Source: Clostridium cavendishii DSM 21758
GTDB lineage: Bacteria; Bacillota; Clostridia; Clostridiales; Clostridiaceae
NCBI RefSeq assembly: GCF_900141845.1
Contig: NZ_FQZB01000006.1
Location: 131,165 to 155,164 of the forward strand
Length of the DNA: 24,000 nt
Reading direction: 5' to 3'
Shown here: piece by piece, positions 2,227-24,000 of the stretch
How positions within the stretch are numbered: position 1 is the stretch's first letter
How the letters are laid out: every line of letters starts with the position of its first letter
The notes under the pieces: generated by a model
The model's database searches: none
Seen by the model: the letters and a program-made list of their open reading frames with translations, nothing else
What the model was told of the DNA's origin: nothing
Made by a program: the position numbers and the translations under genes

Positions 2227-4059
2227 TTACTCTCTATGATAAATTTTAGAATATATCTTTGGTAAATTTCTTACATCATAACCTCTGCTCTTTAAATATA
2301 CAGTTAATTCTTCCCGACTTGGATATGAAAATTCAAACTTCTTAGTTTTATCCCCTCTTAAACCTCTGTTAATTGTCTCTAAACATATTCCAAATTTATT
2401 TGCAAATTTATCTTTATTATCAGTTATATATGTGTTTAAATTTTTATCTATAGCTTTAAAATATTTATTAGAGCTTCTACTTAAAATTAGCTCTATATAT
2501 ACAACATCATTGCTAATATATTTTTTTGGATTATTTCTATAATCAGTTATCATTTTAAACTTTGATTCCGAAAAAAAAGGCTTCAATCTATACCATCTTT
2601 CAAATTTCTGCTTATCTTTATTTGAGTTACACCTTCTGCAACTTGGAAGCACATTCCCTATTTTAGTAGCACCTTTATTATTTATTGATACTATATGTTC
2701 AAGAGCTTCATTATTATTATTTAAAATAGTATTACAATATGCACACTCATATTCCCCTTTTGCACTTTTAAAAAGTTCTTGTATTTGTATATATTCTTCT
2801 AATGTAAGATTTCCTATCGCACCTTTTTTATTAGCCCTTCTGTTAGCAAATCTTATAGATACCTTATCTAAATCTATTTTATTAACATATAATTCAGGTA
2901 TATCAGACAAATCGGTTTTATCACATATATCATATTTTTCCCATAAATACTTTTGTGTTGTAAAATCATATTTTTTTTCTGCTTTTAATCTTTGTTTTAT
3001 TGCATCTGACATTTTATCATACAAACCTAGATTAACTTTCCTTCCATTTACATGTATATATGATTCATATTTATTTCTAAGTCTACTCACTCCTATAACT
3101 TTAGATTTGCTAACTGATATCCCTTTACCATTTTCTCTTTCTAATTTCACTTCTAAATATTGTTTTCTATTATCCAACTTATCTTTCTTTAAATTTTCAT
3201 CAAACTCAATACAATTCAAATGGTCTACAATATAATCAGAATCAAAACAATCCATTATATATCTATGCAAATATAGCTTTTGTCCATTTGCCTGAGTCTT
3301 TACATAATTTCCATCAAAACACCATTTGTATAATCTACACTTTTCAACATCATCAAAATCTATTTTAGTTCTACAAGCCTCTTGTCCTTTTTTATCATAA
3401 AGTATAATTTCTGCATAATCATCATGTAAAACTATCTCATTTCCATCTTTTTTGGTACGAGATAATATTTTTCCATGTCTCCTCATTTGCGCATTATGTT
3501 TTAAACATAAAAACATTTCATATTCCTTACAATAAAATACTTTACTATTAGAACTATCATTCTCACAACCTTCAACATTACAATGTTTTATAAAACTCTG
3601 TTTAGTTGTTTCTTCTATACTAGATATTTTTACATTTAAATACTCTTTTCTATTATCTAAATACCCATTAATATGTTTTATAATACATTTTTTATTATTA
3701 CATTCCATAATATACTTATCTAGTCTTACTTCCTTATTTGCTATCTTTGTTACAATATATTTCCCGTTCAACCCCCATCTATAGCCTTTACATTTTTCAA
3801 CATCCTCAAGATCTATAATTGCTCTATCTTTTTCCTTATTATTTTTATCATATAATATTATTTCTGCATAATCCTTATGTATATCAATCTCATTATTATC
3901 TCTTATAGTTCTTTCTAGTATGCATCCATTACTAAAAAACTGACTTCTATGTCTACTACATAAATACATATCTGCACCTGAACAATAATTTATACTAGTG
4001 TCTTCACTTGTTTTTTTACATCCTAGCACCTCACAACACCTTATGTCATCCAATTGCAT
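2227..4059 (-). CDS. multi-domain HNH endonuclease: two tandem Zn-ribbon + HNH_3-like modules, an AP2-like DNA-binding domain and a C-terminal canonical HNH
   Basis: Module 1 (aa 8-143, nt 3631-4038) and module 2 (aa 160-303, nt 3151-3582) are clear internal paralogues (DYAEIILYDKNNKEKDRAIIDLEDVEKCKGYRW vs DYAEIILYDKKGQEACRTKIDFDDVEKCRLYKW). Each has Cys/His clusters and a degenerate H-N...DNR motif (IKHINGYLDNRKEYL; VDHLN...LDNRKQYL). AP2-like segment is GVSRLRNKYESYIHVNGRKVNLGLYD (aa 322-364). C-terminal HNH is CAYCN...EHIVS...N...CRRCNSNK (aa 439-481, nt 2617-2745). Confidence 0.8.
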   Translation of the reverse strand: MQLDDIRCCEVLGCKKTSEDTSINYCSGADMYLCSRHRSQFFSNGCILERTIRDNNEIDIHKDYAEIILYDKNNKEKDRAIIDLEDVEKCKGYRWGLNGKYIVTKIANKEVRLDKYIMECNNKKCIIKHINGYLDNRKEYLNVKISSIEETTKQSFIKHCNVEGCENDSSNSKVFYCKEYEMFLCLKHNAQMRRHGKILSRTKKDGNEIVLHDDYAEIILYDKKGQEACRTKIDFDDVEKCRLYKWCFDGNYVKTQANGQKLYLHRYIMDCFDSDYIVDHLNCIEFDENLKKDKLDNRKQYLEVKLERENGKGISVSKSKVIGVSRLRNKYESYIHVNGRKVNLGLYDKMSDAIKQRLKAEKKYDFTTQKYLWEKYDICDKTDLSDIPELYVNKIDLDKVSIRFANRRANKKGAIGNLTLEEYIQIQELFKSAKGEYECAYCNTILNNNNEALEHIVSINNKGATKIGNVLPSCRRCNSNKDKQKFERWYRLKPFFSESKFKMITDYRNNPKKYISNDVVYIELILSRSSNKYFKAIDKNLNTYITDNKDKFANKFGICLETINRGLRGDKTKKFEFSYPSREELTVYLKSRGYDVRNLPKIYSKIYHRE

Positions 4060-4243
4060 CGTCCTCCAAATTCATAAATTCTCTACAAAACTTCCCCATT
4101 ACAAATAATAACTATTAACATAATTATAAAATCTGTATTAAAAATAATATTATTTAATCTTATTTTTAATTACTTTTCATTTAAAATCTTTTCAACTTTT
4201 TCAATACTTATATTTAATGCTTTAGCAATGCTCTCAGGTCCCA

Positions 4244-5725: not shown

Positions 5726-5855
5726 ATCCCCCCTTTTAATTTTTTCTTAATTATACAAATTATATATGTATAGTTTAATATTAGCAAACCAGAAAAACAA
5801 GATTAAAAGTAAATACTTCAAAGACTCTACTAATGCTTTTATTTATTACAATCTG

Positions 5856-6764
5856 TTATTTTAATGTATTAATAATATCAATTTTTTTAGCAAACCACTC
5901 ACATATTTCTTTATTTTGATTACTACTTGAAAGAAAATCAGATAATGGCTTTTCAAAATAATAAATATTTACACTTGTATCTTCAACACATCCATCAAAT
6001 ATATTTTCATTTTCCTTTATCTTATTTGTAATGTTCCCAAATTCACTATTGTTTTTTGCAATAACAAGACTAACAACCACCTTAGGTATTTTACCCTCAC
6101 CTCTAAACTCAAATCCAACGATAACTTCTGAATATCCATCTCCAATAATATTTTCACTCCACATAACATACTGTTCATTTAGACATATTTGTTTAAGTCT
6201 TTCATAATCACGTTCATAAGGCTTTCCAAAACACTCTGTTAATTTTGGCTTAACCATATCTAAACACTCATCCATTTTTGCTATTGTAGCATTAATATTA
6301 CTAAGAACTATTAAATCTTGAAAATTAAAATCTCCTGCACTTGACATACCTTCACCCCTTAAAAATTCTAAACATTCTTCTATAATCTTATTTTCTTTAT
6401 ATTGATTCAAAAATGCATATACATCACTCCACCTATATTGTTCAAAGTTAATATTTGAAATATCCTTTTTATCATAATACTTTGTACAATATCTTAAATA
6501 CACATTCTTATTATCATTTACTTTTATTTCATTTAAAACTTTTGAATATCGTCCTAACTGTCGTTCTCCCTCTGAAGAATTAACCTTATTCTCAATAAAA
6601 CAAATGCTTTCTTTATTCTTAACAACTATATCTATAATACAATCCATATCTCCTTGAAGATAATATTTTTCTTGAGAATCAATAGAAAATCCCGTACCCT
6701 CTATTAAAAGAAACTTATTAACAAACTTATCTAATAGTTTATTATCTTGCTCCAACGTTCCCAC
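5856..6764 (-). CDS. PD-(D/E)xK nuclease-family protein (302 aa as tracked; 5' end probably damaged)
   Basis: Core motif D...ExK followed by QLxRY: GDMDCIIDIVVKNKESICFIENKVNSSEGERQLGRY. The tracked start is GTG (6762-6764). The same frame stays open for 30 more codons upstream (to the stop at 6855-6857) with no ATG/GTG/TTG. See the finding on the 5' frameshift. Confidence 0.65.
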   Translation of the reverse strand: MGTLEQDNKLLDKFVNKFLLIEGTGFSIDSQEKYYLQGDMDCIIDIVVKNKESICFIENKVNSSEGERQLGRYSKVLNEIKVNDNKNVYLRYCTKYYDKKDISNINFEQYRWSDVYAFLNQYKENKIIEECLEFLRGEGMSSAGDFNFQDLIVLSNINATIAKMDECLDMVKPKLTECFGKPYERDYERLKQICLNEQYVMWSENIIGDGYSEVIVGFEFRGEGKIPKVVVSLVIAKNNSEFGNITNKIKENENIFDGCVEDTSVNIYYFEKPLSDFLSSSNQNKEICEWFAKKIDIINTLK

Positions 6765-6997
6765 TATTATTTCAGTTGTAAAGTCTTCTAATGGAGTCTT
6801 ACCTGAAGCCCCATTTTTGCTGTATAAAGATAATAACCTTTTATAAATACTAATTCAGAACACCCTCTTCCCTCTCAAATCCTTTCTTTTCCATGTTTAT
6901 ATACATTTAAATCGAATTATATCTATATTTTACCACTTTAGTATTAGTTTCAAATTATTATTTATAAATTTAAATATATTTTTAGCATAATAAAACG

Positions 6998-7018
6998 CCT
7001 TCCAAGTAAGCTTTTATT
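6998..7018 (-). repeat. orphan fragment of the Rpn gene leader / SD region
   Basis: ccttccaagtaagcttttatt matches 9035-9055 (ccttccaagtaggcttttatt) at 20 of 21 nt. The latter is the SD-containing leader just upstream of the Rpn start codon at 9025. No Rpn ORF follows this copy. Confidence 0.5.
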
Positions 7019-7103
7019 TAAAAGAAACTCTTCCTCATCAACATCCTTTGCAGTACCAAGCTGAAACATAACTGACTTTATGCCTACAAATAATTTTATA
7101 TAT

Positions 7104-7150
7104 AAAAAAATGATAGCTACCTATCTAAAAAATAAATAAGTAGCTATCAT
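7104..7150 (-). terminator. rho-independent terminator of the Nudix gene
   Basis: 11-bp perfect stem (7110-7120 atgatagctac / 7140-7150 gtagctatcat), extendable by A:U pairs, with a 19-nt loop. Followed on the minus strand by a 6-7 U run. Starts 5 nt after the stop codon at 7156-7158. Confidence 0.55.
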
Positions 7151-7155
7151 TTTCA

Positions 7156-7539
7156 CTATCTAGTCTTCAAAGCATCAACAACCAAAATATCAGCAGAAAC
7201 CCACTTTTGATCATCTAACTTACCAAAATCAATCCACTTAGCATCATTATGAGCATTCAAGCTTAAAGTTCCACCAGAAATCTCACAAATAAAACAATGC
7301 ATAGTAAGATGAAAATTTGGATAATCATAATCAACAGTAGTTAAAAACTCTAATCCATTAATATCAAGTTCTAGCTCCTCCTTAATCTCACGAACAAGAG
7401 CCTCTTCCCTAGACTCACCACTCTCAACTTTTCCACCTGGAAACTCCCACATATTAACGAAATCCCCATAGCCTCTTCTAGTAATAAATATCTTATCATC
7501 CTTCTTTAAAATAGCTGCAACTACCTCTATAGTCTTCAT
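7156..7539 (-). CDS. Nudix hydrolase, MutT-like nucleoside triphosphate pyrophosphohydrolase (127 aa)
   Basis: Complete Nudix box GX5EX7REUXEEXGU: GGKVESGESREEALVREIKEELEL. Size and the N-terminal beta-strand pattern (IEVVAAILKKDDKIFITRR) are typical of MutT-like enzymes. SD AGAGG lies 7 nt upstream of the ATG. Confidence 0.9.
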   Translation of the reverse strand: MKTIEVVAAILKKDDKIFITRRGYGDFVNMWEFPGGKVESGESREEALVREIKEELELDINGLEFLTTVDYDYPNFHLTMHCFICEISGGTLSLNAHNDAKWIDFGKLDDQKWVSADILVVDALKTR

Positions 7540-7584
7540 ATGCCAACCTCTATCTTAATAATAAATTTCTTAAACCATATTTTT

Positions 7585-7613
7585 ATTATATAAGTTTTGT
7601 AATGAGTTAACAA
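7585..7613 (-). promoter_or_regulatory. candidate sigma-A-type promoter for the Nudix gene
   Basis: On the minus strand: -35 TTGTTA (7608-7613), a 17-nt spacer, then -10 TATAAT (7585-7590), about 45 nt upstream of the ATG at 7539. Pattern match only. Confidence 0.45.
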
Positions 7614-7687
7614 ATTTTTTCTAGAATATAAACACACTTGACCTAATAAATCATAATAAAATATTTATTTATAAGCTTATACTGCGA

Positions 7688-7726
7688 CAATATTCCTTTC
7701 TATTTATTTTATAGAAAGAAATATTG
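7688..7726 (-). terminator. hairpin downstream of the 79-aa Rpn-C-terminal-domain gene (terminator candidate without a clear U-tract)
   Basis: 16-bp stem with one mismatch (7688-7703 caatattcctttctat / 7711-7726 atagaaagaaatattg) and a 7-nt loop, 25 nt past the stop at 7751. No U-run follows on the minus strand, so its function is uncertain. Confidence 0.35.
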
Positions 7727-7750
7727 TAAAAATATAATATTATTAGAGAT

Positions 7751-7990
7751 TTAAAAATACTTCTCTAAATCCTCTACTTTTTCTAAATCAAAAATATCTC
7801 CGCCTATTACATCTAATTTATCTGCTGGAAGACTTGAAATCTTTTTCTTATATTCTTCTGGAAGTTTTTCAAACTTCTTTATCAATTGTTTTAATAAGAG
7901 ATCTGCCTTCCATTTAGTCTCACCTATAGAAACTCCTTCTTTTCTTCCCTCTGCTTTATAATGCATTTTTCTTATTTCATCTATTGTCAT
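7751..7990 (-). CDS. stand-alone Rpn C-terminal domain protein (79 aa), RpnS-like
   Basis: Aligns along its whole length with the last 80 aa of the neighbouring Rpn protein (…EGRKEGVSIGET-KWKADLLLKQLIKKFEKLPEEYKKKI…GGDIFDLEKVEDLEKYF vs …EGKEEGISIGEANGETKGKADLLLKQLIRRFKKLPDGYREKI…AGDIFELEKVEDLEQYF). Has its own ATG with AGGTG 8 nt upstream (7999-8003). Confidence 0.65.
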   Translation of the reverse strand: MTIDEIRKMHYKAEGRKEGVSIGETKWKADLLLKQLIKKFEKLPEEYKKKISSLPADKLDVIGGDIFDLEKVEDLEKYF

Positions 7991-8088
7991 CTTAAATACA
8001 CCTACACTTCTATTCTTGTATTCTTCAAATCATACTCTAGTAATAAGTATGTCATCATTATCTTCTAAATAAATTGCCCGTATAATAC

Positions 8089-8125
8089 AACACTCCTTCA
8101 TACGAAATCCGTAGAAAGGAGTGTT
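8089..8125 (-). repeat. copy B of a conserved two-tier hairpin (also a terminator candidate for the Rpn gene)
   Basis: Outer stem 8089-8098 aacactcctt / 8116-8125 aaggagtgtt. Inner stem TACG/CGTA (8101-8104 / 8110-8113) with loop aaatc. Same architecture and identical inner core (tacgaaatccgta) as 9228-9266. Lies 16 nt past the Rpn stop. Confidence 0.6.
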
Positions 8126-8140
8126 TATATTATGAAAGTT

Positions 8141-8383
8141 TTAAAAATACTGCTCTAAATCTTCTACCTTTTCTAATTCAAAAATATCTCCAGCTATAAC
8201 CTCTATTTGCTCTAATTTAAGATTTAAAATCTTTTCTCTGTATCCATCTGGAAGCTTTTTAAATCTTCTTATTAATTGCTTTAACAACAAGTCAGCTTTT
8301 CCCTTAGTTTCTCCATTGGCCTCACCTATGGAAATTCCTTCTTCTTTACCTTCTTCATATATCATTCTTCCAACATCAGTCAT
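8141..8383 (-). CDS. possible internally initiated small protein (80 aa) in frame within the Rpn gene, RpnS-like
   Basis: In-frame ATG at 8381-8383 (MTDVGRMIYEEGKEEG…) preceded by a perfect AAGGAGG (reverse complement of 8392-8398) with an 8-nt spacer. The product would be colinear with the stand-alone 79-aa ORF at 7751-7990, whose own start codon aligns with this internal Met. Confidence 0.4.
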   Translation of the reverse strand: MTDVGRMIYEEGKEEGISIGEANGETKGKADLLLKQLIRRFKKLPDGYREKILNLKLEQIEVIAGDIFELEKVEDLEQYF

Positions 8384-9025
8384 GCTAACAACCTCCTTAA
8401 ATCTCTTCTTAGCTTTTTCATCTCCAAACTTGTCAAATAAAGCATATAAAAGAGTTAAACATTTAGTCTTCTCTTCTTCATTTTTAATATCCTTAGCTAT
8501 CTCTATACTATCTAATGTAATATCACTTTTACTCTTTTCACTTTCCATAAGTGGAATGAAACTTAATGTCATAATATCTTGTTCGGTTAGCTCTTCTCCA
8601 TTATCTACTTTAGTTTTAATTCTTTCATAATTTTCATCCCCATTTAGCTTACTCATATAAAAGCATTCTAATGTATAATTTATCGAACCACAATTAATAT
8701 TTGTAACTACGTCCTTTATATCTGATGAATACACTACTACGGTTCTTATATTTTTTCTACTCATATAATGAAGAGATGCATCATAATACAAAAATCTTGC
8801 TATATCATCCCTTTTATCAGTAGTTTGAAACTCAAAATGCAAATAATCATCCGTCTCTGTATAAAATAGATAATCCATAGCACTAGTCTTAATATCTATA
8901 TTCTTAATTTCCGTTTGTGCTGGCTTTTTTAGCTTAACATCTAAGTTAAAAAACTCTGATGCACTATCCTTAAAAATCTCCATGGCTTTCTTGAATACAG
9001 CATCTTCAACCTTATTATAATCCAT
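8141..9025 (-). CDS. Rpn/YhgA-family recombination-promoting nuclease / putative transposase (PD-(D/E)xK), 294 aa
   Basis: The N-terminal half has the YhgA/Rpn pattern (…DYLFYTETDDYLHFEFQTTDKRDDIARFLYYDASLHYMSRKNIRTVVVYSS…). The C-terminal G-rich repeat plus helical tail ends in EDLEQYF. I prefer the ATG at 9023-9025 (MDYNKVEDAVF…), which has GGAAGGAG 7 nt upstream. The tracked 315-aa form starts at a TTG (9086-9088) with no comparable SD. Confidence 0.8.
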   Translation of the reverse strand: MDYNKVEDAVFKKAMEIFKDSASEFFNLDVKLKKPAQTEIKNIDIKTSAMDYLFYTETDDYLHFEFQTTDKRDDIARFLYYDASLHYMSRKNIRTVVVYSSDIKDVVTNINCGSINYTLECFYMSKLNGDENYERIKTKVDNGEELTEQDIMTLSFIPLMESEKSKSDITLDSIEIAKDIKNEEEKTKCLTLLYALFDKFGDEKAKKRFKEVVSMTDVGRMIYEEGKEEGISIGEANGETKGKADLLLKQLIRRFKKLPDGYREKILNLKLEQIEVIAGDIFELEKVEDLEQYF

Positions 9026-9227
9026 TTTAAAACTCCTTCCAAGTAGGCTTTTATTAATATATTTGCCAATTTGGGAGGAGTTATGCAAATGTATATTCTG
9101 TTTTGAAAATTAATTTAACTCGTTGTGCTAGTTAAATTATTAACTTCATTCTAACCTATAACTTCAAATCATCTTCTAATATTAACCACCTCATCAGTAT
9201 CTCCAAAATAGATTACCAGTATAATAT

Positions 9228-9266
9228 AAAGACTCCTTCCTACGAAATCCGTAAGAAGGAGTCTTT
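9228..9266 (-). terminator. copy A of the conserved two-tier hairpin; terminator candidate for the ATPase-deaminase operon
   Basis: 12-bp perfect outer stem (9228-9239 aaagactccttc / 9255-9266 gaaggagtcttt). Inner TACG/CGTA stem (9241-9244 / 9250-9253) with loop aaatc. Starts 11 nt after the deaminase stop (9278-9280) and is followed on the minus strand by the U-rich UAUAUUAUAC. Confidence 0.55.
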
Positions 9267-9277
9267 TAAATATATTC

Positions 9278-11938
9278 TTATTTTGAATACTTATTAAGCA
9301 CTTCGCATAAGTATTGATAATATTGAGTGTTAGAAAGCTTATTATCTATAAACGAAGTTTCCATACCTGACTTTCTTAACTTTTCAATCCACTCTAAAGC
9401 CTTTTCTTTACCAAACCCTTTATTAAGCATTCCATAATACATGTATGCATATTCATTACTGATATTTGTGTTAAAAATTAAAGGATTATCTGAATTGATA
9501 TTTATAAGTACATTATTTTCTTCAAAGCCTTCAACATTATTTATATTGTAAGCTTGGCTGTCAAATACAGCATCTAATTCTCCTATACTAGTATTCGAAC
9601 TTGGATTTATTTCAACTACTATTCCTTTAGTTGAAAGTTCATTTACCAATTCTCTTTTTACTTCATTAATTATTTCCTTTTGAATGTTATTTGATTGTAC
9701 ATAAATAGGCTCACTAATCTTATCTAAATAGCATTTACAATTATATGCATGAGTTATTTTTTCTGCATTCCAAATAGAACTTTGATGTTTTTCTATTTTT
9801 ACGCAAAGAACCTCATTATTATTTTCAATCAAGTTTTCAGCTGATTTTTTATAGTTTTCATTTTTTTGAAATTTATTAAATCTTAATTGGTAAGCTTCAT
9901 ATAACATAGGAATATTTATTCCATTCATGTTTTTAAATATATCCTTTGCCAATGAATATATTTCTCTTTCTAAAAACAGATTAACTGCCACATTTTTAGA
10001 AATAGAATTTGTGTATACTCCCCATACCCATAACAAGTTATCAAGATATTCTCCTCTAGGAAGTATTACTACCGTATTTGCATTTACCCACTTATTTGGA
10101 TCAATTCCTAGAGCTATAGCATGCCCTATTCTATCACCAGAATGAAACTTACAAAAGGTTACAACTTCATGTATTCTTCTTAACCCTGATAATATATGTC
10201 TAAACTCTTCACCGGCGTGGAAGGTATAGCATAGACTTTTATATCTTACACTACTTCCATCTTTTCCTTGCTTAATTAGTGAATCAATAGAACTATCTCT
10301 AGCCCTTTTGTATATAGGTGCAAATACCTGTACCGGAGTGTTATTTTCAAGATTTGCAGCATCTATTCCTAATATAAAGTATGAGAGATATGGTGATTCA
10401 TTTCTTAGATTCAATAAATTTTGAATCAAAACATCATAATCTTCTTGAATCTTTTTAAAAGAAATTTCACTTGGGTTACTTTTACCATCAAAAGCAAGCC
10501 AACATTTTTCATCTCCATCTTCATCTTTTCTTTTAATTAAATGAAATACTAATCCGATCCTAGGAAAATCAACATTACTATCTTCATTTGTAGAATATTC
10601 ATCATCTATAACCTTTTTATAAGCTGAAAGTATACTTAGTAAATTTTTTTTAAAATCACTTTCATTTTTAGATATACTAAACCTTAATTCTAATCTTTTT
10701 AAATACTCATTTTGAAATAAAGTTCTAAACAATAGTTCATAATATGCTTCATCGCTTAATCCACTGCTGCCCAAAAATTTAGTTGCTCTATCAAAAAAGT
10801 TTGAGAAATTATCCAATCCTTTTATAGTTGAACTTTGAACCACTTGTTGATAAAATTCATTTTTAATCCTAATATATTTTAATAAAATTTTAAATAAAAA
10901 TGGTTCTTTTGTTTCTTCATATTTTGTAAAAGCCTTCATTAAAAATACATTCTCACCATAAGTATTGATTCCTTTGCATTCAGTAAATATCCTAAACACA
11001 ATATCTTCTTTTTTATCATTATCTTTTATCTGATATTGTTTGTTTAAGTCTTCCAACAATTTAAGCAATTCAATATTAGTAATCTCTTTTTCTTGTCCAC
11101 TCACTACTAATAATATATTTTTAATATTTTTTAACTCACCTTTGCAATACTCCTCTATTGTTATATCTGAGTCATTTTGATATTTCATATAAAACATAAC
11201 TATATTCCTATATATAGCTGCTAATATGAAATATCTGTGAGGATTTTCTTTGAATTCTCCTTCTCCATTTTTAAAGTACTTAACTTTTTTAATATTTTTC
11301 GCTTTTATCCTTTGATTCATAAGCTGTTCCCAAAGCAATATAAAGTTAAACCCAGAATTAGCATGTAAATGATTTTCAGCTACACCTTTCACAAGTAAAT
11401 CATCTAACTGAGAATCTGCCAAGCTTATATCTGAATAATAGCCATCCAATTCTCTAAAATCAACAATGTTATTTTTAATCATATATAATATTGTAAATAA
11501 ATCCATAGAAATTATTGAATTTATATTACGAAACACTTCAATTTTCTTATACTCTTCATAAGGCCCTATAAATTCATCATCCAAATTATTTTTCCAATAC
11601 TTGTACACTATCTTTCCATTTCTGTGAGATATCAAAGTAGTAGTAAATTTTCTTAAATTTTCATAATAGCATTCATAAACTTTGTCTTCATTAATTTCTC
11701 TTTCTCTTAAAAATGGATAATACTTATTAAGAATTAAATAAACCTCATCCAAGTTTTTTATTTCAGATGTTTCACTTATTTTATAAACTAATTCTTCCAA
11801 TAAAAAACTTTTATTTTTCTTCTCACTAGGATCAGCTATTTTTAAAAATGTATCTTCTTCAAAAAAGAACAAATCTTTAAATGGTATCAATGCAACATTT
11901 AAAATTTCTCTAATTTTAGTATTCATTTGCATCTGCAT
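9278..11938 (-). CDS. rdrB: divergent adenosine-deaminase-fold protein (886 aa), RdrB-like (RADAR deaminase)
   Basis: All adenosine-deaminase signature motifs occur in the canonical order. NH190LH192 (nt 11363-11371). G524IDAAN. H574AGE577 (nt 10208-10219). DRIGH606 (nt 10121-10123). E776INPSSN782. S816D817NP (D817 at nt 9488-9490). The protein is far larger than a housekeeping ADA and sits directly behind a ~940-aa ATPase gene, overlapping it. Three in-frame ATGs (11938, 11932, 11926); GAGGA spacing favours 11932. Confidence 0.8.
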   Translation of the reverse strand: MQMQMNTKIREILNVALIPFKDLFFFEEDTFLKIADPSEKKNKSFLLEELVYKISETSEIKNLDEVYLILNKYYPFLREREINEDKVYECYYENLRKFTTTLISHRNGKIVYKYWKNNLDDEFIGPYEEYKKIEVFRNINSIISMDLFTILYMIKNNIVDFRELDGYYSDISLADSQLDDLLVKGVAENHLHANSGFNFILLWEQLMNQRIKAKNIKKVKYFKNGEGEFKENPHRYFILAAIYRNIVMFYMKYQNDSDITIEEYCKGELKNIKNILLVVSGQEKEITNIELLKLLEDLNKQYQIKDNDKKEDIVFRIFTECKGINTYGENVFLMKAFTKYEETKEPFLFKILLKYIRIKNEFYQQVVQSSTIKGLDNFSNFFDRATKFLGSSGLSDEAYYELLFRTLFQNEYLKRLELRFSISKNESDFKKNLLSILSAYKKVIDDEYSTNEDSNVDFPRIGLVFHLIKRKDEDGDEKCWLAFDGKSNPSEISFKKIQEDYDVLIQNLLNLRNESPYLSYFILGIDAANLENNTPVQVFAPIYKRARDSSIDSLIKQGKDGSSVRYKSLCYTFHAGEEFRHILSGLRRIHEVVTFCKFHSGDRIGHAIALGIDPNKWVNANTVVILPRGEYLDNLLWVWGVYTNSISKNVAVNLFLEREIYSLAKDIFKNMNGINIPMLYEAYQLRFNKFQKNENYKKSAENLIENNNEVLCVKIEKHQSSIWNAEKITHAYNCKCYLDKISEPIYVQSNNIQKEIINEVKRELVNELSTKGIVVEINPSSNTSIGELDAVFDSQAYNINNVEGFEENNVLININSDNPLIFNTNISNEYAYMYYGMLNKGFGKEKALEWIEKLRKSGMETSFIDNKLSNTQYYQYLCEVLNKYSK

Positions 11939-14735
11939 TGTCCTCTTCTTCAGGTAATTCTAAATCAAATTCTTTATAGAATAATTCTTCCTCAGCTTTT
12001 GCTTTCTTAAATGCTTCCTCTAAAGCTTTTTTCATTGAATTCTTTTTTTGCTCTAAATTTATAATCATTTCTGTTTCAGCTGAATTAACATTTCTATATT
12101 TAATATACTCTTGGATAATAAAATTAAATACAGGTTCTTCTATATCTAAATAAGCTTCTTTCTGTAATGTTTCAAGTAAATTTCTCGCTTCAATAACACC
12201 ATACCAAGCTGTACTCTTATAACCAAGATAACGAAGTTTTTCAACAATTTTTATGTAATCACCAATTGAAACTTTCTCTTTTTCACTTCCATCTTCAACT
12301 ATTATACTTTTAATAAATTCATGTGTTTTTCTATATACTGTTTTAGAATTATATTCAACATTATAAAATTTTCTAAATTCTTCTTTGAAATTTTCATCAT
12401 TTATATCTATAATATTAATCATCCCAACAACTACATCTATTTTTTTGTGAACTTCATCTCTTAACAGTTCATCAATCTTTGTTTTATTATTTTTTACATT
12501 TTGATTATTATCTAATTTCTTTAAAATTTTTATTATAGATTTAGATTCATTATCTAAGTTCTTCAAGTCTTGATCATTATTAACCACTATAATATTGTTT
12601 TTATACTTTTCCTTATTTATATAATTATAAAATAATTGTTTTTTATAGTTTTCATAAACTTTATATGCTTTATTATTTTTTTCATCTTTTTTTTCTGGGT
12701 TTTGCAATAATTGAATCTGATTTTCTGTATATTCTATATTCATCTCATAATCTTTACCTTTTAAAAAACTATATTGATTCAATATTTTTTCAATCTTTTC
12801 ATTCTCAATAGGCTCTCTTGATACTGAATCTAGAAATTCTATTATATGTTTATACTTTTCTCTATCTAAATACCAATTTTTAATCATGTCTCCATTATCA
12901 TAATCTAAAATTAAATTACATAAAATCAAATAAATTTGACGTTTTTCTTTAACACTTAAATCTTTAACTTTTTCATCATCTATTTTAATAATATTTTTTA
13001 GCTTTTCCATGAAAAATAAGGCAAACTTAAAATCAGTATTAAAAATTATCTGATCAATCCAATCATTAATTATTGGATTTTTATCTTTCATAAAATCTTT
13101 AAATTTTTCATTATTAAAGTTTACTTTATCAACATCTACATTTAAAATATTTTCACCTATATTAAATTTATATAAATAGAAAAAATATTTTTTAGCCTCT
13201 TCATATCCTACAACATTTGCTTTTGGCAATAACTCTTTAGTTGTTTGTAATAATATAAAGAAAGTTATATATCTATTTATATACTTTCTCTTTTCTTCTT
13301 TATTATTATCTTCTTTATCATCTTTCTTTCCTTTATCTTTATCAGAATTTAATTCATTTTTAAAACTGTTACTTAGCTTCTTTGTAAAAAGTCTTTTAAA
13401 ATCTATTATTGTATTTTCCTCATTTGATCCCCATTTGATATGCTTTTCATAAATCTTACTTTGATCTTTTATTAAGTCACTTGAAGAATATATAATTGTA
13501 TCTATTAACGATTTAATAAATACAAATCTTTTTTCATCATCTACAAATTCCTCTTTATCATATTTACTTAAATAATAAAATACATTTATTAAACCTCTTG
13601 GTGTTTTATCAAAAATTACATATGGTATTTCCGAGAAAATCTCGTCACTTTTTTTATTTTTCCTCTTAAATATATTGTCTTCACCCATCAAATCATCTAG
13701 TTTTTTATGCAAATATATCGTTTCATTTCCACTTTTATCAACTTGAAATGAAAAATTAGGTATACTCTTAAAATTCCATTTTATAACATTATGCCTAAAT
13801 GCAGGTGGTAACACCTTTTTTAAATATTCATGTGCTAAATATTTTTTTCTACTAATTAAATTATGTTTACTATCAAATAATTCATTATTTTCTACAAGGC
13901 TTGTTGTTGCTAACTTTTCATTTTCTAATAATGCTAAAGTTATAGATTCACTTAATATTTCATAATCTCCAGATAAAAAACATATTATATTAGGATGGCA
14001 AGTATAAGCCATTACTGCATCTATCAATTCTCTACATTTATTTGTTTTTAAATCGATATCATCTATTGTTATAATAATTAATGGCTCTTCACCTTTATTT
14101 AAGTTTCTTTTTACACTAATTAATTCTTCTACGAAAGAATGTAATTTATTGTTAAATTCATAATCAGGTGCTAAAATATAAGAATATTTCTCCTTATAAG
14201 TTTCCATATCACTATAATTTTTCATTATTAAATTACGATATTCAGCATCTTTATAACAATAATATTCTAGAACTTCATTATAACTTCTACTTAACTCATT
14301 ACTTTCTTTAAACCTACATTGATTAAAAAAATCTGAGAACTCTTTATTATCAATTTCATTTTTTTCTATTTCATTTTCTAGAGCTTGCATTTCTTTTTTC
14401 AAAACACCTAATATTGCTCCTAGTATCTTTGTACTATCTCCATATATATCTGGTTCTATTATTGGAAGAACGATATCTTTATTTCCTTCAGCTTCTAAAC
14501 TATTTAAAATAGTATACATAGTTGAAGTTTTTCCTGTTCCCCTTTCGCCAAATAATCCAATAGTATTATTGTATTGCTTCTTACTACTATTATCTCTTTT
14601 TCTATTTATTAACTTTGCTTGTCCTCTTATTTCTTCAATTTGATTGATTATATTATCATATGTAGGAACTATTAATTTAACTTGTACATCACTTAAAGCT
14701 CTGGCGCCTATAAAAACTCCATTTTTATTTTTCAT
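11916..14735 (-). CDS. rdrA: large P-loop NTPase (939 aa), RdrA-like (RADAR ATPase)
   Basis: Walker A GLFGERGTGK69TS (nt 14523-14549) and Walker B PLIIITIDD225-226ID (nt 14052-14063), both in the first 230 aa. About 700 further residues are K/N/E/I-rich with no recognisable motif. Size, position immediately upstream of the deaminase and the 23-nt overlap match RdrA. The family call rests on architecture, not on sequence identity I can verify. Confidence 0.7.
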   Translation of the reverse strand: MKNKNGVFIGARALSDVQVKLIVPTYDNIINQIEEIRGQAKLINRKRDNSSKKQYNNTIGLFGERGTGKTSTMYTILNSLEAEGNKDIVLPIIEPDIYGDSTKILGAILGVLKKEMQALENEIEKNEIDNKEFSDFFNQCRFKESNELSRSYNEVLEYYCYKDAEYRNLIMKNYSDMETYKEKYSYILAPDYEFNNKLHSFVEELISVKRNLNKGEEPLIIITIDDIDLKTNKCRELIDAVMAYTCHPNIICFLSGDYEILSESITLALLENEKLATTSLVENNELFDSKHNLISRKKYLAHEYLKKVLPPAFRHNVIKWNFKSIPNFSFQVDKSGNETIYLHKKLDDLMGEDNIFKRKNKKSDEIFSEIPYVIFDKTPRGLINVFYYLSKYDKEEFVDDEKRFVFIKSLIDTIIYSSSDLIKDQSKIYEKHIKWGSNEENTIIDFKRLFTKKLSNSFKNELNSDKDKGKKDDKEDNNKEEKRKYINRYITFFILLQTTKELLPKANVVGYEEAKKYFFYLYKFNIGENILNVDVDKVNFNNEKFKDFMKDKNPIINDWIDQIIFNTDFKFALFFMEKLKNIIKIDDEKVKDLSVKEKRQIYLILCNLILDYDNGDMIKNWYLDREKYKHIIEFLDSVSREPIENEKIEKILNQYSFLKGKDYEMNIEYTENQIQLLQNPEKKDEKNNKAYKVYENYKKQLFYNYINKEKYKNNIIVVNNDQDLKNLDNESKSIIKILKKLDNNQNVKNNKTKIDELLRDEVHKKIDVVVGMINIIDINDENFKEEFRKFYNVEYNSKTVYRKTHEFIKSIIVEDGSEKEKVSIGDYIKIVEKLRYLGYKSTAWYGVIEARNLLETLQKEAYLDIEEPVFNFIIQEYIKYRNVNSAETEMIINLEQKKNSMKKALEEAFKKAKAEEELFYKEFDLELPEEEDNADANEY

Positions 14736-14776
14736 TTTTTCTTTCCTTCCAATTTTTAAAATTTGTTATCTTATAA

Positions 14777-15262
14777 TTATTTAGTTTTTTCATTTTTTTG
14801 TTCTATATGTTTATTCCAATTATCAACGTCAGCTTTAGAAATATTTTTTATTATCTGAAGCACTTCATCATCATAATTCTTTTTCTCACTAGATTCGCTA
14901 CATTTAATTAATATTTCCATCAATCCATCACCAATATTTTCAACTGCTTGTCTATATCTTAGCCAAGATAATTTATAATTTTTTAAATATGATACTGAAA
15001 TTAAAATATTTATTAATACTGCTATAGCTGAGTTTATAATCTTTGTATTATCATTAAAAACATTCACTAATGGTATTATTGCGGTAAGAATTATTATACT
15101 AATATTAAATAAATTATACCTAGCTCTCCCCCCGTCAGCTTTATTTATATACCATTCCAACTTATAAAATGCTATATCGGATGTCATTTTTGTAATATAT
15201 TCTTTATTAGTTAAATCATCTAATATATTCTTATAAAAATTCAGCTCTGATGATTGCTTCAT
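14777..15262 (-). CDS. small 2-TM membrane protein (161 aa), SLATT/DUF4231-like; RADAR accessory (RdrC/RdrD-type) candidate
   Basis: Two adjacent hydrophobic helices (YNLFNISIIILTAIIPLVNVF and IINSAIAVLINILISVSYL, nt about 14981-15118) are followed by SWLRYRQAVENI, the W-x-RYR-x-x-E pattern I associate with SLATT/DUF4231. AAGGAG lies 9 nt upstream of the ATG. First gene of the operon, 41 nt before the ATPase start. Confidence 0.6.
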   Translation of the reverse strand: MKQSSELNFYKNILDDLTNKEYITKMTSDIAFYKLEWYINKADGGRARYNLFNISIIILTAIIPLVNVFNDNTKIINSAIAVLINILISVSYLKNYKLSWLRYRQAVENIGDGLMEILIKCSESSEKKNYDDEVLQIIKNISKADVDNWNKHIEQKNEKTK

Positions 15263-16799: not shown

Positions 16800-16836
16800 A
16801 AAAAAATGAGCAACGTAAATGTTGCTCATTTTTTTA
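16800..16836. terminator. bidirectional rho-independent terminator between convergent genes
   Basis: Perfect 9-bp GC-containing stem (16806-14 atgagcaac / 16821-29 gttgctcat) with loop gtaaat. Flanked by A6-7 (16800-16805) and T6 (16830-16835), which extend the stem and give a U-tract in both directions. Lies between the stops at 16794-96 (+) and 16834-36 (-). Confidence 0.75.
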
Positions 16837-19800
16837 TTTATTCTTTTGCATTTCCATCCAAAAAGCATTATCTTGCATATAGATAACATCTTCAACATTT
16901 CCTAGCTTTACTAAACTCTTATGTTGTTCTAATGACTTTATCTTAGTAAACAGCTCATCTTCCTGTGTCTTATTCGTTGTATTATATATAAACTTTATGT
17001 CTTTTATTGAAAGGTCTGATACCTTGTGTACTATCCAAGTTAGGATATAGTTTGCATACTCATTATCTCCTGTAGAAAAATGGCTTAGTAGCTGTGTTGA
17101 TAGTATTGTTCCTACTCCAAACATTCTACCTTCTTTTAAGATCTTCTTTAAACTTTGGAAATTTTCACACAAGAAGTTATCAGCCTCATCAACTAATATC
17201 ATCTTACTCAACTGTCTATACTTGTCATCAAGTTTACTTTCTCCTAATACTTTCATTTGTGAATAGAAGATATCTAGTATTATACCTACAACTAAGTTTT
17301 GAATATCCGAATCACTGTTTGAAAGGTTTATTACTGTAACTCCATCAATCATATCATATAATGATTTAGAGTTATCCACATCTGGATCAAATATTTCAAA
17401 ATCATATAACTTATCTAAACATGTAAATAGTTTATCTTGCTTTACATCTTCATCATCAAAAAACTCTCTGCATACTTCTGCTATAGTTGGTGGTTTTTTA
17501 GTCCATGTATTTGGATCATTCTTTTTAATTCCACGTTTATCATATGCATTCATTATAAGTTCTTTTAATTTGTTCTCTTGGACTACACCTAAACCAAAAG
17601 CTGTAGTCATTGTATGTTTCAAAGCATTAGCAGTGTATAATGGTAATAAGTTTTTCTCCTTATTTCCCTGAACTAATTCTAGTGGATTAAATGGAAGATG
17701 ATATGTCTCATATACCTTAGCATTTGTAGCCTCAACAAATTCATTATCTATATAATCACCTTTATAATCAAATATTAACAATCCAATCTTTTTACCATCA
17801 ATATTTTGATAAGTATTTTTATTTAATTGATATATAAGAGATTTAGTAAACTGAGTTTTACCAGTTCCCATAGTTCCAATTATACCTGTATTAGTATGAT
17901 TATTTTGTATTGAATCAGTTGGATTCCAAATCACCTCACAATCTCTATGAATATCTCTTCCAAAAAGAACTGATAATGGCCCTTTAGTTTCTGCAACTGC
18001 CCCAGTATCTTCACCACTATTTCCATCATATATCGCACTTGATTCTTCATCATTTGAATTATCATTAATAGACGTTTCTTCTTTCATTTCACAAACTCTA
18101 CCTTCATATAGGTTATATAATAATGTATCACTCTTTATATCGCTCTTATCTAATATAAAATTGTTCTTTATTTCTTCAACACTTCTTAAAATATTTCTAT
18201 ATCCTGATGCTTCTGGGAATACTAATTCTAAAATCTTATTTCCCTTATCATATTCTTCCTGATTAAAAGCATCTCCTAATTCATCAACACCAATTGAAAC
18301 AAGTTCACCATTCTTTTCAAATGATATATCACTTTTAAAAGTAAATATAGCACCTCTTCCAATTATCTCATCTAAACTATTAGATATTCTATAATCATCA
18401 TTTAATAACTTTGCTCTTACATCAGTTTCTATAATAGAATCCCAATTTTGTTCATCCCACACATTATAAAGCTTTAATTTCTCGATGCTTACAAGAACTA
18501 ATTTAATTAGAAAATCTCTAAATATCTTTGCTTGTAATTTATCATTGATTTCTTTGCTTATATTCCTTTCTATATGATTTCTTGTTTTGTAAGCTTGTAG
18601 CTTCGCCTTTTTAGTTACATCCCCTTTAATTTGCCCAATCTTAACTTCAATTGGATAATAGTGAACATCTATATTACCATCAGCACAACATTCTATTCCT
18701 ACTAATAACAAGTCATCTGAATAAGCACCATCACCACTTAAATTTTTTACTGAGAACAAACCTTCTTTACTACTTAAACCACAACCTTTGGATACTCTTA
18801 GAATTTCCTCTAATGAAATTGGGACCCATACAATTTTTTTATTGTAAAAATATGACAAACTTAACTTTATAGTAGATACGATACTAAGCTTCTCTCTATC
18901 TTCATATCCATTACAAGAAATAATTTTTAATAACCAATCTCCATTTATCGCATTAAAACAGTTTATTACTTTAGTTATTGACTCTTCATCATTTCCTAAT
19001 AATACATTTTTATTTTCTAAGAAACTCTTTATTACTTCCTTATATTGCTTAGTCTTTTTAGTTACTGTAATAGAATCATATCCAGAAGATGGTGTATATT
19101 GATCACTATAATGTATAATAAGTAAATCTTTTTCTTCAATAGTATCTTTAAAAAATTGTAATCCAACCATTGGATTTATGAATGTTACCCAATTTGCAGA
19201 TTCATAAATACGATTTAATTGATCTTCTTTATATTCATCTATAGCGGTAGTTTTGCACCTACTATCATCAAATGGTGATTCATTTTCAGCAGAACAAATT
19301 AATGCATTCATTTTAGTAGCCATTTTTAGAAGTGTATTTTTAGAATGAATAAATTTAGTTCCATACCCTGTTCTATATGATTTAGATATTTCTTTAGAAG
19401 GAACTGATGATAATAATCCACCAAGTGATACACCCGTGTTTATATTATCCATTATCGTATTTTTATTAGAGAACTCATGCTCCATTTCGTAGAATGTTAT
19501 ATGACTATATTCATACTTAGTAGTATCATAATTTTTTATATAACAGCTAAGCTTTGAATTTACGATATCAAAAATATCATCCTTAGAATACTTCTTATTG
19601 CTAGATTTTATTGCAAATGATAAACCTAGCTTTTCCTCTGCATCCTCAACATGCACATAATTTTGAAGTTCCTCAAATACACTATCACCAGACTTATTGT
19701 ATATATTAATAATAAGTGGTCTTAACTTCTCAATTCCCTTACTCTTTAATCCTTCAGTATAATAGTCTATTATACCTTGTAAAATATCTTTAGAGTATCC

Positions 19801-22107: not shown

Positions 22108-23479
22108 TTTTCTTTTCTAATACATTTAATCTTTGATAAAAATCAATTAATCTATTTCTTGAATCCTTATCTAGATAAACCCCTCTTCTTTCAAGTTCTT
22201 TTATAATGTATTGTAATCTAACCTTTTGCTCATCTTTTATACATAGTTTAGTTAATAGTATTACATATTCTTCTGTTAAGTTTAATGTCATCCCATTTCT
22301 TCCCCTATTTCTTAAGAAGTTATTTCTACAAAACTCAAAGAACCAATCGTAATAACGACGACTTAACTCTATGGCATTTGTAACCTTCGAATGATGATTA
22401 TGTATTAAGCCATATAATTTTTCAACTTCAACTAAAATATCATCCTCAGTATCAGAGTCAAATTCATACTCTGTCCAATATTCATTTTCATCTTTTATAG
22501 CAGCTTCGTACATAGCTACTACTTCAGATAAATTCTGCCATGTCTCTAGTTTCTCATCATCATTCATTTTGCTAACTAATTCTTTAAATTCCTTGTAAGT
22601 ATAGTTATTATGACCAGCTTCTGAACAGTTTAAAATATTTAGACATATTTCATGAGATCTTAAACTATTTATAGCATTTTCTACTAAGCACCATCCATTT
22701 TCATATCCTATACGCCCTTTAGAAACCTTTTCCCAATCAAACGTAAAGTATATTAGCGGTACTTCCTTTTCATCAAACATATTATTTAAATTACCAACTG
22801 CCCTTAATATATAAACTACATAATAGAACTTTAAAAGAGTTACTATTTGAGAACAAAAATTCCTCTTTCCTTTTAAAAGATATTTCAAATCCTCATTAAA
22901 AACAGACGTAATTTCTTCTGCGAAATTCTTATATTGTTTCTTTTTCTTTTCACTATTTATAGCTACCTCTGGTAGCTTATCTAAAATTAAATCAGTTAAA
23001 ACATTTCCTGTTTTGTTTTCAAACACTTCTTCAATACATTTTCCATAGTTCTCTTTTTCATCAAATAAAACATCATATAGAAAATTCCCCATTTCTATGT
23101 TTTCTTCCTCTGTCATTGAATAAACTAAAACTTTAGGATGAAACTTTGCAATGCCCTTATCTTCATCAAAGAAAATTGTTGAAACTACTTCTTTAAACTT
23201 TTCTTTATCATTTTCAGTCTCAAACTCTACTGAATTTATAATATCTGAAAAGAATACCTCTTTATTAAACTCAGTTACATTACAATTTAATAAGTTACAA
23301 CAAAAAGCTCCAATACACTCATCAAACCTTTTTATGATATCCTTATGCTCCTTTAATGGTCTAACATTATATGGAACTATTAATTTATCTTTAGTTTTAG
23401 GCTTATGCGTTGGTTTCTTAGTCGGATCCTTCATACTATAATCCTTCTTTACTTTGCTTATATCAATCTTATATCCCAT
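22067..23479 (-). CDS. 470-aa protein of unknown biochemistry; DptG (DndG)-like by size and operon position
   Basis: Its ATG (23477-79) shares one nt with the upstream gene's TAA (TAATG) and has GAGGTG 8 nt upstream. Its 3' end overlaps the 1757-aa gene by 20-41 nt. No catalytic motif recognised. The family call is positional only. Confidence 0.4.
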   Translation of the reverse strand: MGYKIDISKVKKDYSMKDPTKKPTHKPKTKDKLIVPYNVRPLKEHKDIIKRFDECIGAFCCNLLNCNVTEFNKEVFFSDIINSVEFETENDKEKFKEVVSTIFFDEDKGIAKFHPKVLVYSMTEEENIEMGNFLYDVLFDEKENYGKCIEEVFENKTGNVLTDLILDKLPEVAINSEKKKKQYKNFAEEITSVFNEDLKYLLKGKRNFCSQIVTLLKFYYVVYILRAVGNLNNMFDEKEVPLIYFTFDWEKVSKGRIGYENGWCLVENAINSLRSHEICLNILNCSEAGHNNYTYKEFKELVSKMNDDEKLETWQNLSEVVAMYEAAIKDENEYWTEYEFDSDTEDDILVEVEKLYGLIHNHHSKVTNAIELSRRYYDWFFEFCRNNFLRNRGRNGMTLNLTEEYVILLTKLCIKDEQKVRLQYIIKELERRGVYLDKDSRNRLIDFYQRLNVLEKKSDSGDALYVRSIL

Positions 23480-24000
23480 TATTTAATCACCTCAAATTTA
23501 TACTTACCAAACTTTTTAGTGAACTTAAATGTTTCTACCCCATCAGCTATGTTTTCTTTAATATAGATCTCTTTATTTTGCTCTCCATAATTCTTTATCT
23601 TTTCAATGGAATCAATAAAGCTAATAAAATCACTTCTTTCCTTTTTCTTTGGAATATACCCTTGTCTTACTTTTGTTAATAATTTATATAGCTTGTAATC
23701 AAGCTTAATAGTTAATCTATCACCCTTATTCTTTATAACAAAATCTAATATTATATTTGAAACAAACTTATCTAGCCTTCCCGTTAAAACTTTATTTTCT
23801 AATTCATCTTCTTCACATTCTAAATATAACTTTTCATATGTCTTAAACCTATTTTGCGATTTCCCCATATTTATTCTTATATTACTATCTGAAGATTTAA
23901 CATTGTCCAATTTATATATAGCTTCACTTACCAAATCATATAAATCTCCTAATTCTGTAATATTATTAGTATTAAAGACATACAAGTATTTAATAAATTC
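23479..24000 (-). CDS. C-terminal part (at least 173 codons) of the first visible gene of the operon; possibly DptF-like; truncated by the window edge
   Basis: The tracked start (23983-85) is a TTG, and the frame stays open to position 24000 (…EFIKY-L-YVFNT…), so the gene most likely begins beyond the window. No motif in the visible part. Confidence 0.35.
   Translation of the reverse strand, partial: EFIKYLYVFNTNNITELGDLYDLVSEAIYKLDNVKSSDSNIRINMGKSQNRFKTYEKLYLECEEDELENKVLTGRLDKFVSNIILDFVIKNKGDRLTIKLDYKLYKLLTKVRQGYIPKKKERSDFISFIDSIEKIKNYGEQNKEIYIKENIADGVETFKFTKKFGKYKFEVIK

Follow-up and report, generated by a model that had tools for sequence, protein, structure and literature searches.

A probable Rpn-type gene-within-gene toxin-antitoxin module and an additional free-standing tail gene in a Clostridium defence island

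The Rpn proteins of Escherichia coli are toxic nucleases, and internal starts within their genes give rise to small RpnS proteins that block them (Zhong et al., PNAS 2023, PMC10400941). A locus in Clostridium cavendishii DSM 21758 raises the question of whether a gene of this kind carries an antitoxin within its own reading frame and, in addition, a second, separately encoded one beside it. The locus lies in a 24,000-nucleotide stretch of DNA (contig NZ_FQZB01000006.1, positions 131,165 to 155,164; hereafter the window, whose own numbering is used below), and consists of a long gene, referred to here as rpn, and a gene for a 79-amino-acid protein directly downstream. The original prediction for this locus had pointed to a 2023 study on the neutralization of toxic Rpn proteins by RpnS, and the content of this study is as described there. 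It also reports that an Rpn gene of Clostridioides difficile yields an RpnS, with an internal ribosome binding site and start that are active when expressed in E. coli, and it describes separate downstream DUF4351 genes, termed rpnSs, namely ypaA located 3' of rpnE and a second rpnC-S located 3' of rpnC, with the downstream small copies clustering with the tail of their own neighbor (PMC10400941). Based on the analyses presented below, the C. cavendishii locus is probably an Rpn-type gene-within-gene toxin-antitoxin module accompanied by a further tail gene that stands alone, located in a Clostridium defence island.

Both genes are encoded on the minus strand, and the features of the pair and its flanks described below are given for that strand. 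The long gene (8141-9025) encodes an RpnL-like protein of 294 amino acids, composed of a predicted, distant Rpn-type PD-(D/E)XK N-terminal domain and a DUF4351 tail. Its start is most likely the ATG at 9025, rather than the TTG of a 315-amino-acid form, because the ribosome site GGAAGGAG lies upstream of this ATG and all homologues begin with MDYNK. Within the gene, the Lys-Glu-Val codons form the Shine-Dalgarno (SD) sequence AAGGAGG (8392-8398), which is followed, after an 8-nt spacer (8391-8384), by an in-frame ATG (8381-8383). From this candidate internal translation initiation site, a predicted RpnS-like short product of 80 amino acids would be read (8141-8383, stop codon 8143-8141); re-reading confirmed the position and description that had been given for this element. 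A 150-nt spacer separates the rpn stop from the free-standing, rpnSs-like gene (7751-7990), which has an SD sequence, AGGTG (7999-8003), at a distance of 8 nt from its ATG. DUF4351 (Pfam PF14261) is matched above the curated cut-off of 25 bits by the long gene's tail and by the 79-amino-acid protein, with scores of 45.4 and 48.9 bits, respectively, and the 80-amino-acid tail and the 79-amino-acid protein are 57% identical (BLASTP, E 2e-29). In a DNA alignment of the two tail copies the ATGs coincide, with a 2-codon insertion right after the ATG of the small gene. The small gene is a paralogue of the tail with its start aligned to the internal Met, as had been proposed.

Is the internal start used? 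The motif AGGAGG-N5-10-ATG occurs once in the window against 0.66 occurrences expected by chance, which is not significant for a single sequence; its significance derives from comparison with relatives. Codon usage was compared in 50 related genes from genome assemblies, some of them from loci that are close kin; as these genes share only 50-70% protein identity, their synonymous sites are largely independent. Lys at position -5 is encoded by AAG in 42 of 43 genes, compared to a background of 32% in the same genes (P 5e-20), and Glu at position -4 by GAG in 48 of 48 (background 23%, P 1e-31). In the column of the start codon itself, 39 of the 50 genes have ATG, 7 GTG, and 4 TTG, with every Val encoded by GTG (7/7, background 14%) and every Leu by TTG (4/4, background 14%); at the protein level, the residue in this column is Met in 103 of 119 homologues, Val in 13, and Leu in 3. 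Most of the GGAGG pentamers found in the 50 genes (39/52) are located at the internal site. Pairing with the anti-SD sequence of the 16S tail was calculated at -13.4 kcal/mol for the internal site versus -11.7 kcal/mol for the primary start, and of 32 genes compared, 24 likewise have stronger pairing at the internal SD than at the primary one. Furthermore, in the AlphaFold2 (AF2) model, the internal Met (residue 215) is the first residue of the long tail helix.

It could be argued that AAGGAGG and ATG are a by-product of conserved Lys-Glu-Val...Met residues and that there is no separate short protein, given that these residues are indeed conserved at the protein level and that the motif does not exceed chance in the single sequence. 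However, the synonymous codons are fixed on SD-forming choices despite an AT-rich background, every replacement of the Met uses an alternative start codon, and the same design has been shown experimentally in E. coli and for the C. difficile gene (PMC10400941). We consider such a by-product very improbable. Because the synonymous sites of both the SD sequence and the start codon appear to be under selection, it can be deduced with high confidence that translation of the tail alone also takes place, from the internal start.

The predicted short product also shares the repeat organization of RpnS. A tract of four-residue xxxG units, recognized in alignments of homologues, lies in the first helix of the tail (8300-8359). 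The units begin 9 residues after the internal Met, and the lengths of the homologues in the alignments step by four residues (278, 282, 286, 290, 294, 298, etc.). RpnS repeats start 8-20 residues after the initiating Met and set the specificity between long and short forms (PMC10400941); both the position of the xxxG units and the stepwise variation in length agree with this published description. AF2 models of the tails consist of a first helix of 38-41 residues followed by three short helices, with a predicted local distance difference test score (pLDDT) of 80 for the 79-amino-acid protein. Compared to the 80-amino-acid tail, the first helix of the 79-amino-acid protein has 3 extra residues in its head and one four-residue unit fewer.

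Differences in unit number were also observed between paralogues elsewhere in the genus. Clostridium hydrogenum (locus L038) carries tandem full-length rpn paralogues (728-1600 and 3001-3909) with tails that are nearly identical except for the number of units, at 77 versus 89 amino acids. In Clostridium acetireducens (locus L045), two near-identical paralogues of ~409 amino acids, belonging to another Rpn-like class with DUF4351 tails, flank rpn on the opposite strand; their DUF4351 matches fall in minus-strand frames at 930-1073 and 4004-4147, and their repeat tracts differ by about one EKGI unit.

The N-terminal part of the long protein is more divergent. The NCBIfam model TIGR01784 (Rpn family recombination-promoting nuclease/putative transposase) aligns to it over nearly its full length (model positions 3-246 of 273, E 5e-5), including the D...ExQ motif, but with 23.3 bits against a cut-off of 52.1, and matches at E <= 0.01 were obtained for 27 of 35 members of the clade, the best at 1.6e-9. 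When a profile of the clade (A2) was aligned by hhalign to 10 canonical Clostridiaceae Rpn proteins, a match over 193 columns was recovered (E 7.4e-5, probability 62%) with the nuclease motif Asp and Glu-x-Gln in register, and the corresponding residues D51, E65, and Q67 are invariant in the 35 clade sequences. The AF2 model of the long form (pLDDT 80) contains an alpha/beta N-terminal domain, for which the best, albeit weak, Foldseek matches in the Protein Data Bank (PDB) are the PD-(D/E)XK nucleases NucS/EndoMS (probability 0.82-0.96), with Cap4, Card1, and Kpn2I lower down at low probability. Sequence searches of the PDB, whether started from the protein or from the family profile, returned nothing relevant, and PADLOC had no model matching either the long protein or the 79-amino-acid protein. 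Given the weak but near-full-length homology to TIGR01784, the hhalign match, the conserved D...ExQ motif, and the fold neighbors, the long gene is predicted to encode a divergent Rpn-like PD-(D/E)XK nuclease. The label "Rpn nuclease" in the original prediction therefore holds in the sense of a remote relative, but not at the level of the NCBIfam cut-off; in databases, the proteins of this clade are named only "DUF4351 domain-containing protein".

We then consider where the 79-amino-acid gene came from. Directly 5' of its ATG are 13 dead in-frame codons, closed by TGA (7991-8029), which are homologous to coding sequence in the relatives P0170 and L102, and because of this homology the gene, as judged from its upstream sequence, clearly descends from a longer gene. 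The dead codons are in turn directly preceded by 111 nt (8023-8133) that duplicate the region 5' of rpn, with 78-82% identity to the original at 9162-9273. The tail part of the 79-amino-acid protein forms a clade with the tail of its neighbor and the relative P0122 (support 99/94), whereas the dead codons together with the first ~20 residues of the small gene score 122 against P0170 and 97 against L102, but 60 against the neighbor. Since the head matches another tail lineage while the tail is local, the gene is, by these affinities, a mosaic and not a plain duplicate of its neighbor. Tandem duplication of the adjacent rpn gene followed by internal deletion was accordingly rejected as the whole story, as the head fits the other lineage better. 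It is further disfavored by the lower divergence of the flank copies (21%, 8023-8133 versus 9162-9273) compared to that of third codon positions of the tails (41%, 7751-7990 versus 8141-8383; P 0.005), for which gene conversion, constraint on the flanks, and different ages are possible causes.

The small gene has a counterpart in L102, a locus from another genus of the same family. Located at 1498-1806 on the minus strand, beside an XRE-type helix-turn-helix (HTH) gene, it encodes a collinear, gap-free, 79-amino-acid homologue of the small gene with 53% identity over the 92 residues compared and saturated synonymous sites. No nuclease was found in its flanks, of which 1.5 kb were examined in either direction. 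Upstream, one frame shifted, is a short stretch resembling the extreme N-terminus of the long Rpn-like protein (reading frames read by eye), and the L102 locus thus appears to be an Rpn-like gene from which the nuclease core has been excised. Several Clostridiaceae genomes (L083, L103, L106, L107, L109, and L111) harbor shortened rpn copies in which the internal start and the tail have been retained. Among these, the metagenome contig L083 (2286-2824) encodes P0122, to which the tail in the window is most closely related, with 88 amino acids and seven xxxG units; AAGGAGG and ATG are intact there, and the upstream nuclease domain is reduced to broken fragments. Tail-only reading frames are frequent in general, as the 149 best cluster representatives from an exhaustive search include 65 with a length of at most 100 amino acids, 60 of which begin with Met. 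An initial impression that free-standing tails are rare, based on a word-index protein search that returned two relatives only, was overturned by this exhaustive search and by six-frame searches of genomes.

Descent from a longer gene had been put forward as an alternative to an antitoxin function, with the 79-amino-acid gene being the remnant of a tandemly duplicated Rpn gene. The origin from a longer gene stands, given the dead codons and the duplicated 5' flank, but the head of the small gene derives from another tail lineage, and a remnant origin and an antitoxin role are compatible rather than mutually exclusive. The question is then whether the gene has been maintained. Its AGGTG sequence pairs with the anti-SD at -9.4 kcal/mol, more strongly than the starts of the nearby NUDIX and RdrB genes. 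With P0122 as the third sequence, a parsimony count assigned to the small gene's own branch 13 synonymous changes at 43 sites and 18 non-synonymous changes at 185 sites, corresponding to an omega of ~0.32 (P 0.003 against neutrality), and pairwise omega is 0.18-0.21 at a dS of ~1. Between the SD and the end of the ATG, the small gene and its L102 counterpart agree at 16 of 18 nt (hand alignment). Because the gene appears to have been kept under purifying selection, it is most likely translated, and by the same evidence most likely functional.

The contrary explanation is that the 79-amino-acid reading frame is a decaying remnant of a truncated Rpn-like gene, untranslated or without function, which would leave only the intragenic RpnS. 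Its descent from a longer gene, with the 13 dead codons and the flank copy joined to them, is what would be expected of such a remnant, debris in the form of truncated rpn copies whose tails are intact is common among Clostridiaceae, no promoter was found, omega is somewhat raised, and another scar lies nearby in the form of an orphan rpn leader (6986-7018). However, the frame has stayed open at a dS of ~1, with non-synonymous changes depleted on the gene's own branch; a collinear counterpart of the same length persists in another genus, with saturated synonymous sites and a near-identical SD-to-ATG stretch; and the SD is stronger than in real genes next to it. On balance, we regard decay as unlikely.

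A functional gene need not act on its neighbor. The 79-amino-acid protein could be non-cognate, either as an orphan antitoxin against other Rpn toxins, incoming or lost, or as a spare tail cassette that swaps by recombination and thereby changes specificity. The mosaic structure, with a head from the other lineage and a local tail, would fit such a role, as would the small indels in the first helix, including one four-residue unit, since repeat number sets specificity in E. coli (PMC10400941). However, no full-length homologue with a tail of the 79-amino-acid type was found, and the longest exact match between the two tail copies is ~14 nt (by eye, from the DNA alignment), a poor substrate for homologous recombination, making a non-cognate role quite doubtful. 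We would give a similarly slim chance to the idea that the small gene belongs to an independent tail-only lineage, as suggested by the same length, the same head, and the near-identical SD-to-start stretch in another genus, with no nuclease in the 1.5 kb examined to either side. If this were true, it would mean that tails outlive their nucleases and are kept for a role of their own, such as immunity to incoming Rpn toxins, acting as a decoy for phage anti-defence factors, or serving as a donor cassette through which recombination would alter the specificity helix of the resident toxin.

Several observations weigh against the interpretation of the locus as a nuclease with two RpnS-type proteins. 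With respect to the long gene, the N-terminal domain misses the curated cut-off of TIGR01784, and no Pfam nuclease family matched the N-terminal 214 residues. With respect to the tails, neither of the two AF2 models had a significant PDB match in Foldseek searches, and the RpnA-S crystal structure 7TH0 was not listed. The small indels between the two first helices, including one four-residue unit, cast doubt on whether the 79-amino-acid protein would neutralize its neighbor, as one extra unit abolished neutralization in E. coli RpnC (PMC10400941). Omega on the branch of the 79-amino-acid gene is higher than on the other two branches, both by branch-length estimate (0.38 versus 0.12 and 0.09) and in the parsimony count (0.32 versus 0.26 and 0.18). 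A 3296-nt Logan contig from a public run (L084) is the same as window positions 5777-9072 except at 7903 and 7900, and both differences are non-synonymous changes in adjacent codons of the 79-amino-acid gene (D29Y and L30F), where the conserved core of the tail begins; these could reflect either real diversification or assembly error. Finally, promoter-like sites numbered 13 compared to 10.9 in shuffled sequences, with no promoter standing out for either short product and no coding-strand promoter-like site in the 150 nt that separate the 79-amino-acid gene from the rpn stop, and a strong hairpin is located between the two genes.

Taking these points into account, the proposal of an intragenic and a trans-encoded RpnS-like copy is supported by the conserved internal start, the four-residue variation, the DUF4351 matches, the defence-island setting described below, and purifying selection. 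In the mechanism we propose, the 294-amino-acid long form would act as a distant Rpn-family PD-(D/E)XK nuclease, and ribosomes would also initiate at AAGGAGG-N8-ATG to produce the 80-amino-acid DUF4351 tail alone. By analogy with RpnA, RpnB, RpnC, and RpnP2 of E. coli, this RpnS-like short form may bind the same tail in the long form via the long first helix, keeping the nuclease inactive until phage infection. The 79-amino-acid gene would have arisen when the nuclease part was deleted from a longer Rpn-like gene, leaving a tail-only gene for which that lineage's own internal ribosome site became the new start. Its product would most likely act as a second, trans-encoded RpnS-type protein of the rpnSs type, like ypaA of E. 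coli.

The surroundings of the two genes were also considered. Immediately upstream of rpn is a SLATT-RdrA-RdrB (RADAR) system (9278-15262), DndF/G/H are encoded at 16834-24000, and a NUDIX gene and a PDDEXK_4 nuclease gene lie downstream of the pair. By this gene content, rpn and the 79-amino-acid gene sit in a defence island, in line with the published finding that such islands are enriched in rpn genes (PMC10400941). No other DUF4351 copy was found in the C. cavendishii genome itself, and those near relatives for which an organism is named come almost entirely from Clostridium. Full-length homologues with 53% identity, annotated as "DUF4351 domain-containing protein", were also observed on Clostridium tetani plasmids (records H1-H8), and a weaker N-terminal match was present in one Clostridium phage record.

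The flanks of both genes contain repeats. The original rpn 5' flank (9162-9273), situated between the RdrB stop and rpn, and its copy (8023-8133) are each composed of a 45-nt palindromic hairpin and 68 nt of adjoining sequence (repeat families D2 and D3). The hairpin in the copy (8089-8133), which also lies at the end of the rpn gene, folds at -23.9 kcal/mol (z -7.4). A weaker hairpin located 3' of the 79-amino-acid gene (7689-7728, inverted-repeat pair I2), a diverged copy of the palindrome, folds at -12.3 kcal/mol (z -4.2). A scan for promoters and terminators detected no canonical terminator. The palindromes bracketing rpn (9229-9273 and 8089-8133) have at least 10 more copies in the genome that are 80-89% identical (contigs C54, C31, and C12), and by this distribution the 45-nt element is a palindromic repeat of the dispersed type; the 68 nt next to it are common only to the rpn and 79-amino-acid gene flanks. 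Reading by eye, small open reading frames were seen in the same register of both flank copies on the minus strand, at 9156-9194 (12 codons, MRWLILEDD...) and 8002-8058 (18 codons, MMTYLLLEYD...), the stop of the latter overlapping the AGGTG site of the 79-amino-acid gene. These might encode leader peptides or be due to chance. The orphan rpn leader at 6986-7018, between the NUDIX and PDDEXK_4 genes, matches the segment of rpn that holds its ribosome site and start codon (9023-9055) at 88% and continues for only 8 codons, a further scar of rearrangement.

Among characterized systems, the locus most resembles rpnE-ypaA and rpnC/rpnC-Ss of E. coli, in which a long gene with an internal start for its tail is followed by a separate tail gene, with DUF4351 in some species. 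In these systems, as here, the small copy groups with the tail of its neighbor and the first helix varies by four-residue repeats. In contrast with them, the C. cavendishii long protein has a divergent Clostridium N-terminal domain that scores below the TIGR01784 cut-off, and the small gene is a mosaic that has its head from another lineage and lies behind a copy of the rpn 5' flank. RpnL/RpnS of C. difficile is comparable as a Gram-positive case with an internal ribosome binding site and start and with four-residue repeats, while the canonical Clostridiaceae Rpn genes sampled (A5) have an HTH-like tail, not DUF4351. The plasmid-encoded RpnP2 L/S pair, in which the short form keeps the toxic nuclease in check, is anti-phage and enriched in defence islands, and a similar role is proposed for the locus described here. 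Since the rpnE-ypaA type of layout has been published, the architecture is not new, and the locus is a well-supported but ordinary new example of an arrangement already known from E. coli.

The known picture is left unchanged, and the use of this locus lies mainly in annotation and as a test case. For annotation, it would extend the published antitoxin-inside-toxin design to a clade of Clostridium proteins labelled only as DUF4351 in databases, and with the codon choice of a ribosome site fixed in ~50 genes, it provides an unusually clean case for an internal start drawn from comparative data. As a test case, the intragenic tail and the adjacent free tail differ in their first helix, and may thus offer a natural test of helix length as a determinant of toxin-antitoxin specificity. 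The locus may also show how stand-alone tail genes are born, with the nuclease deleted, the internal ribosome site turned into the start of a gene, and the tail still under selection.

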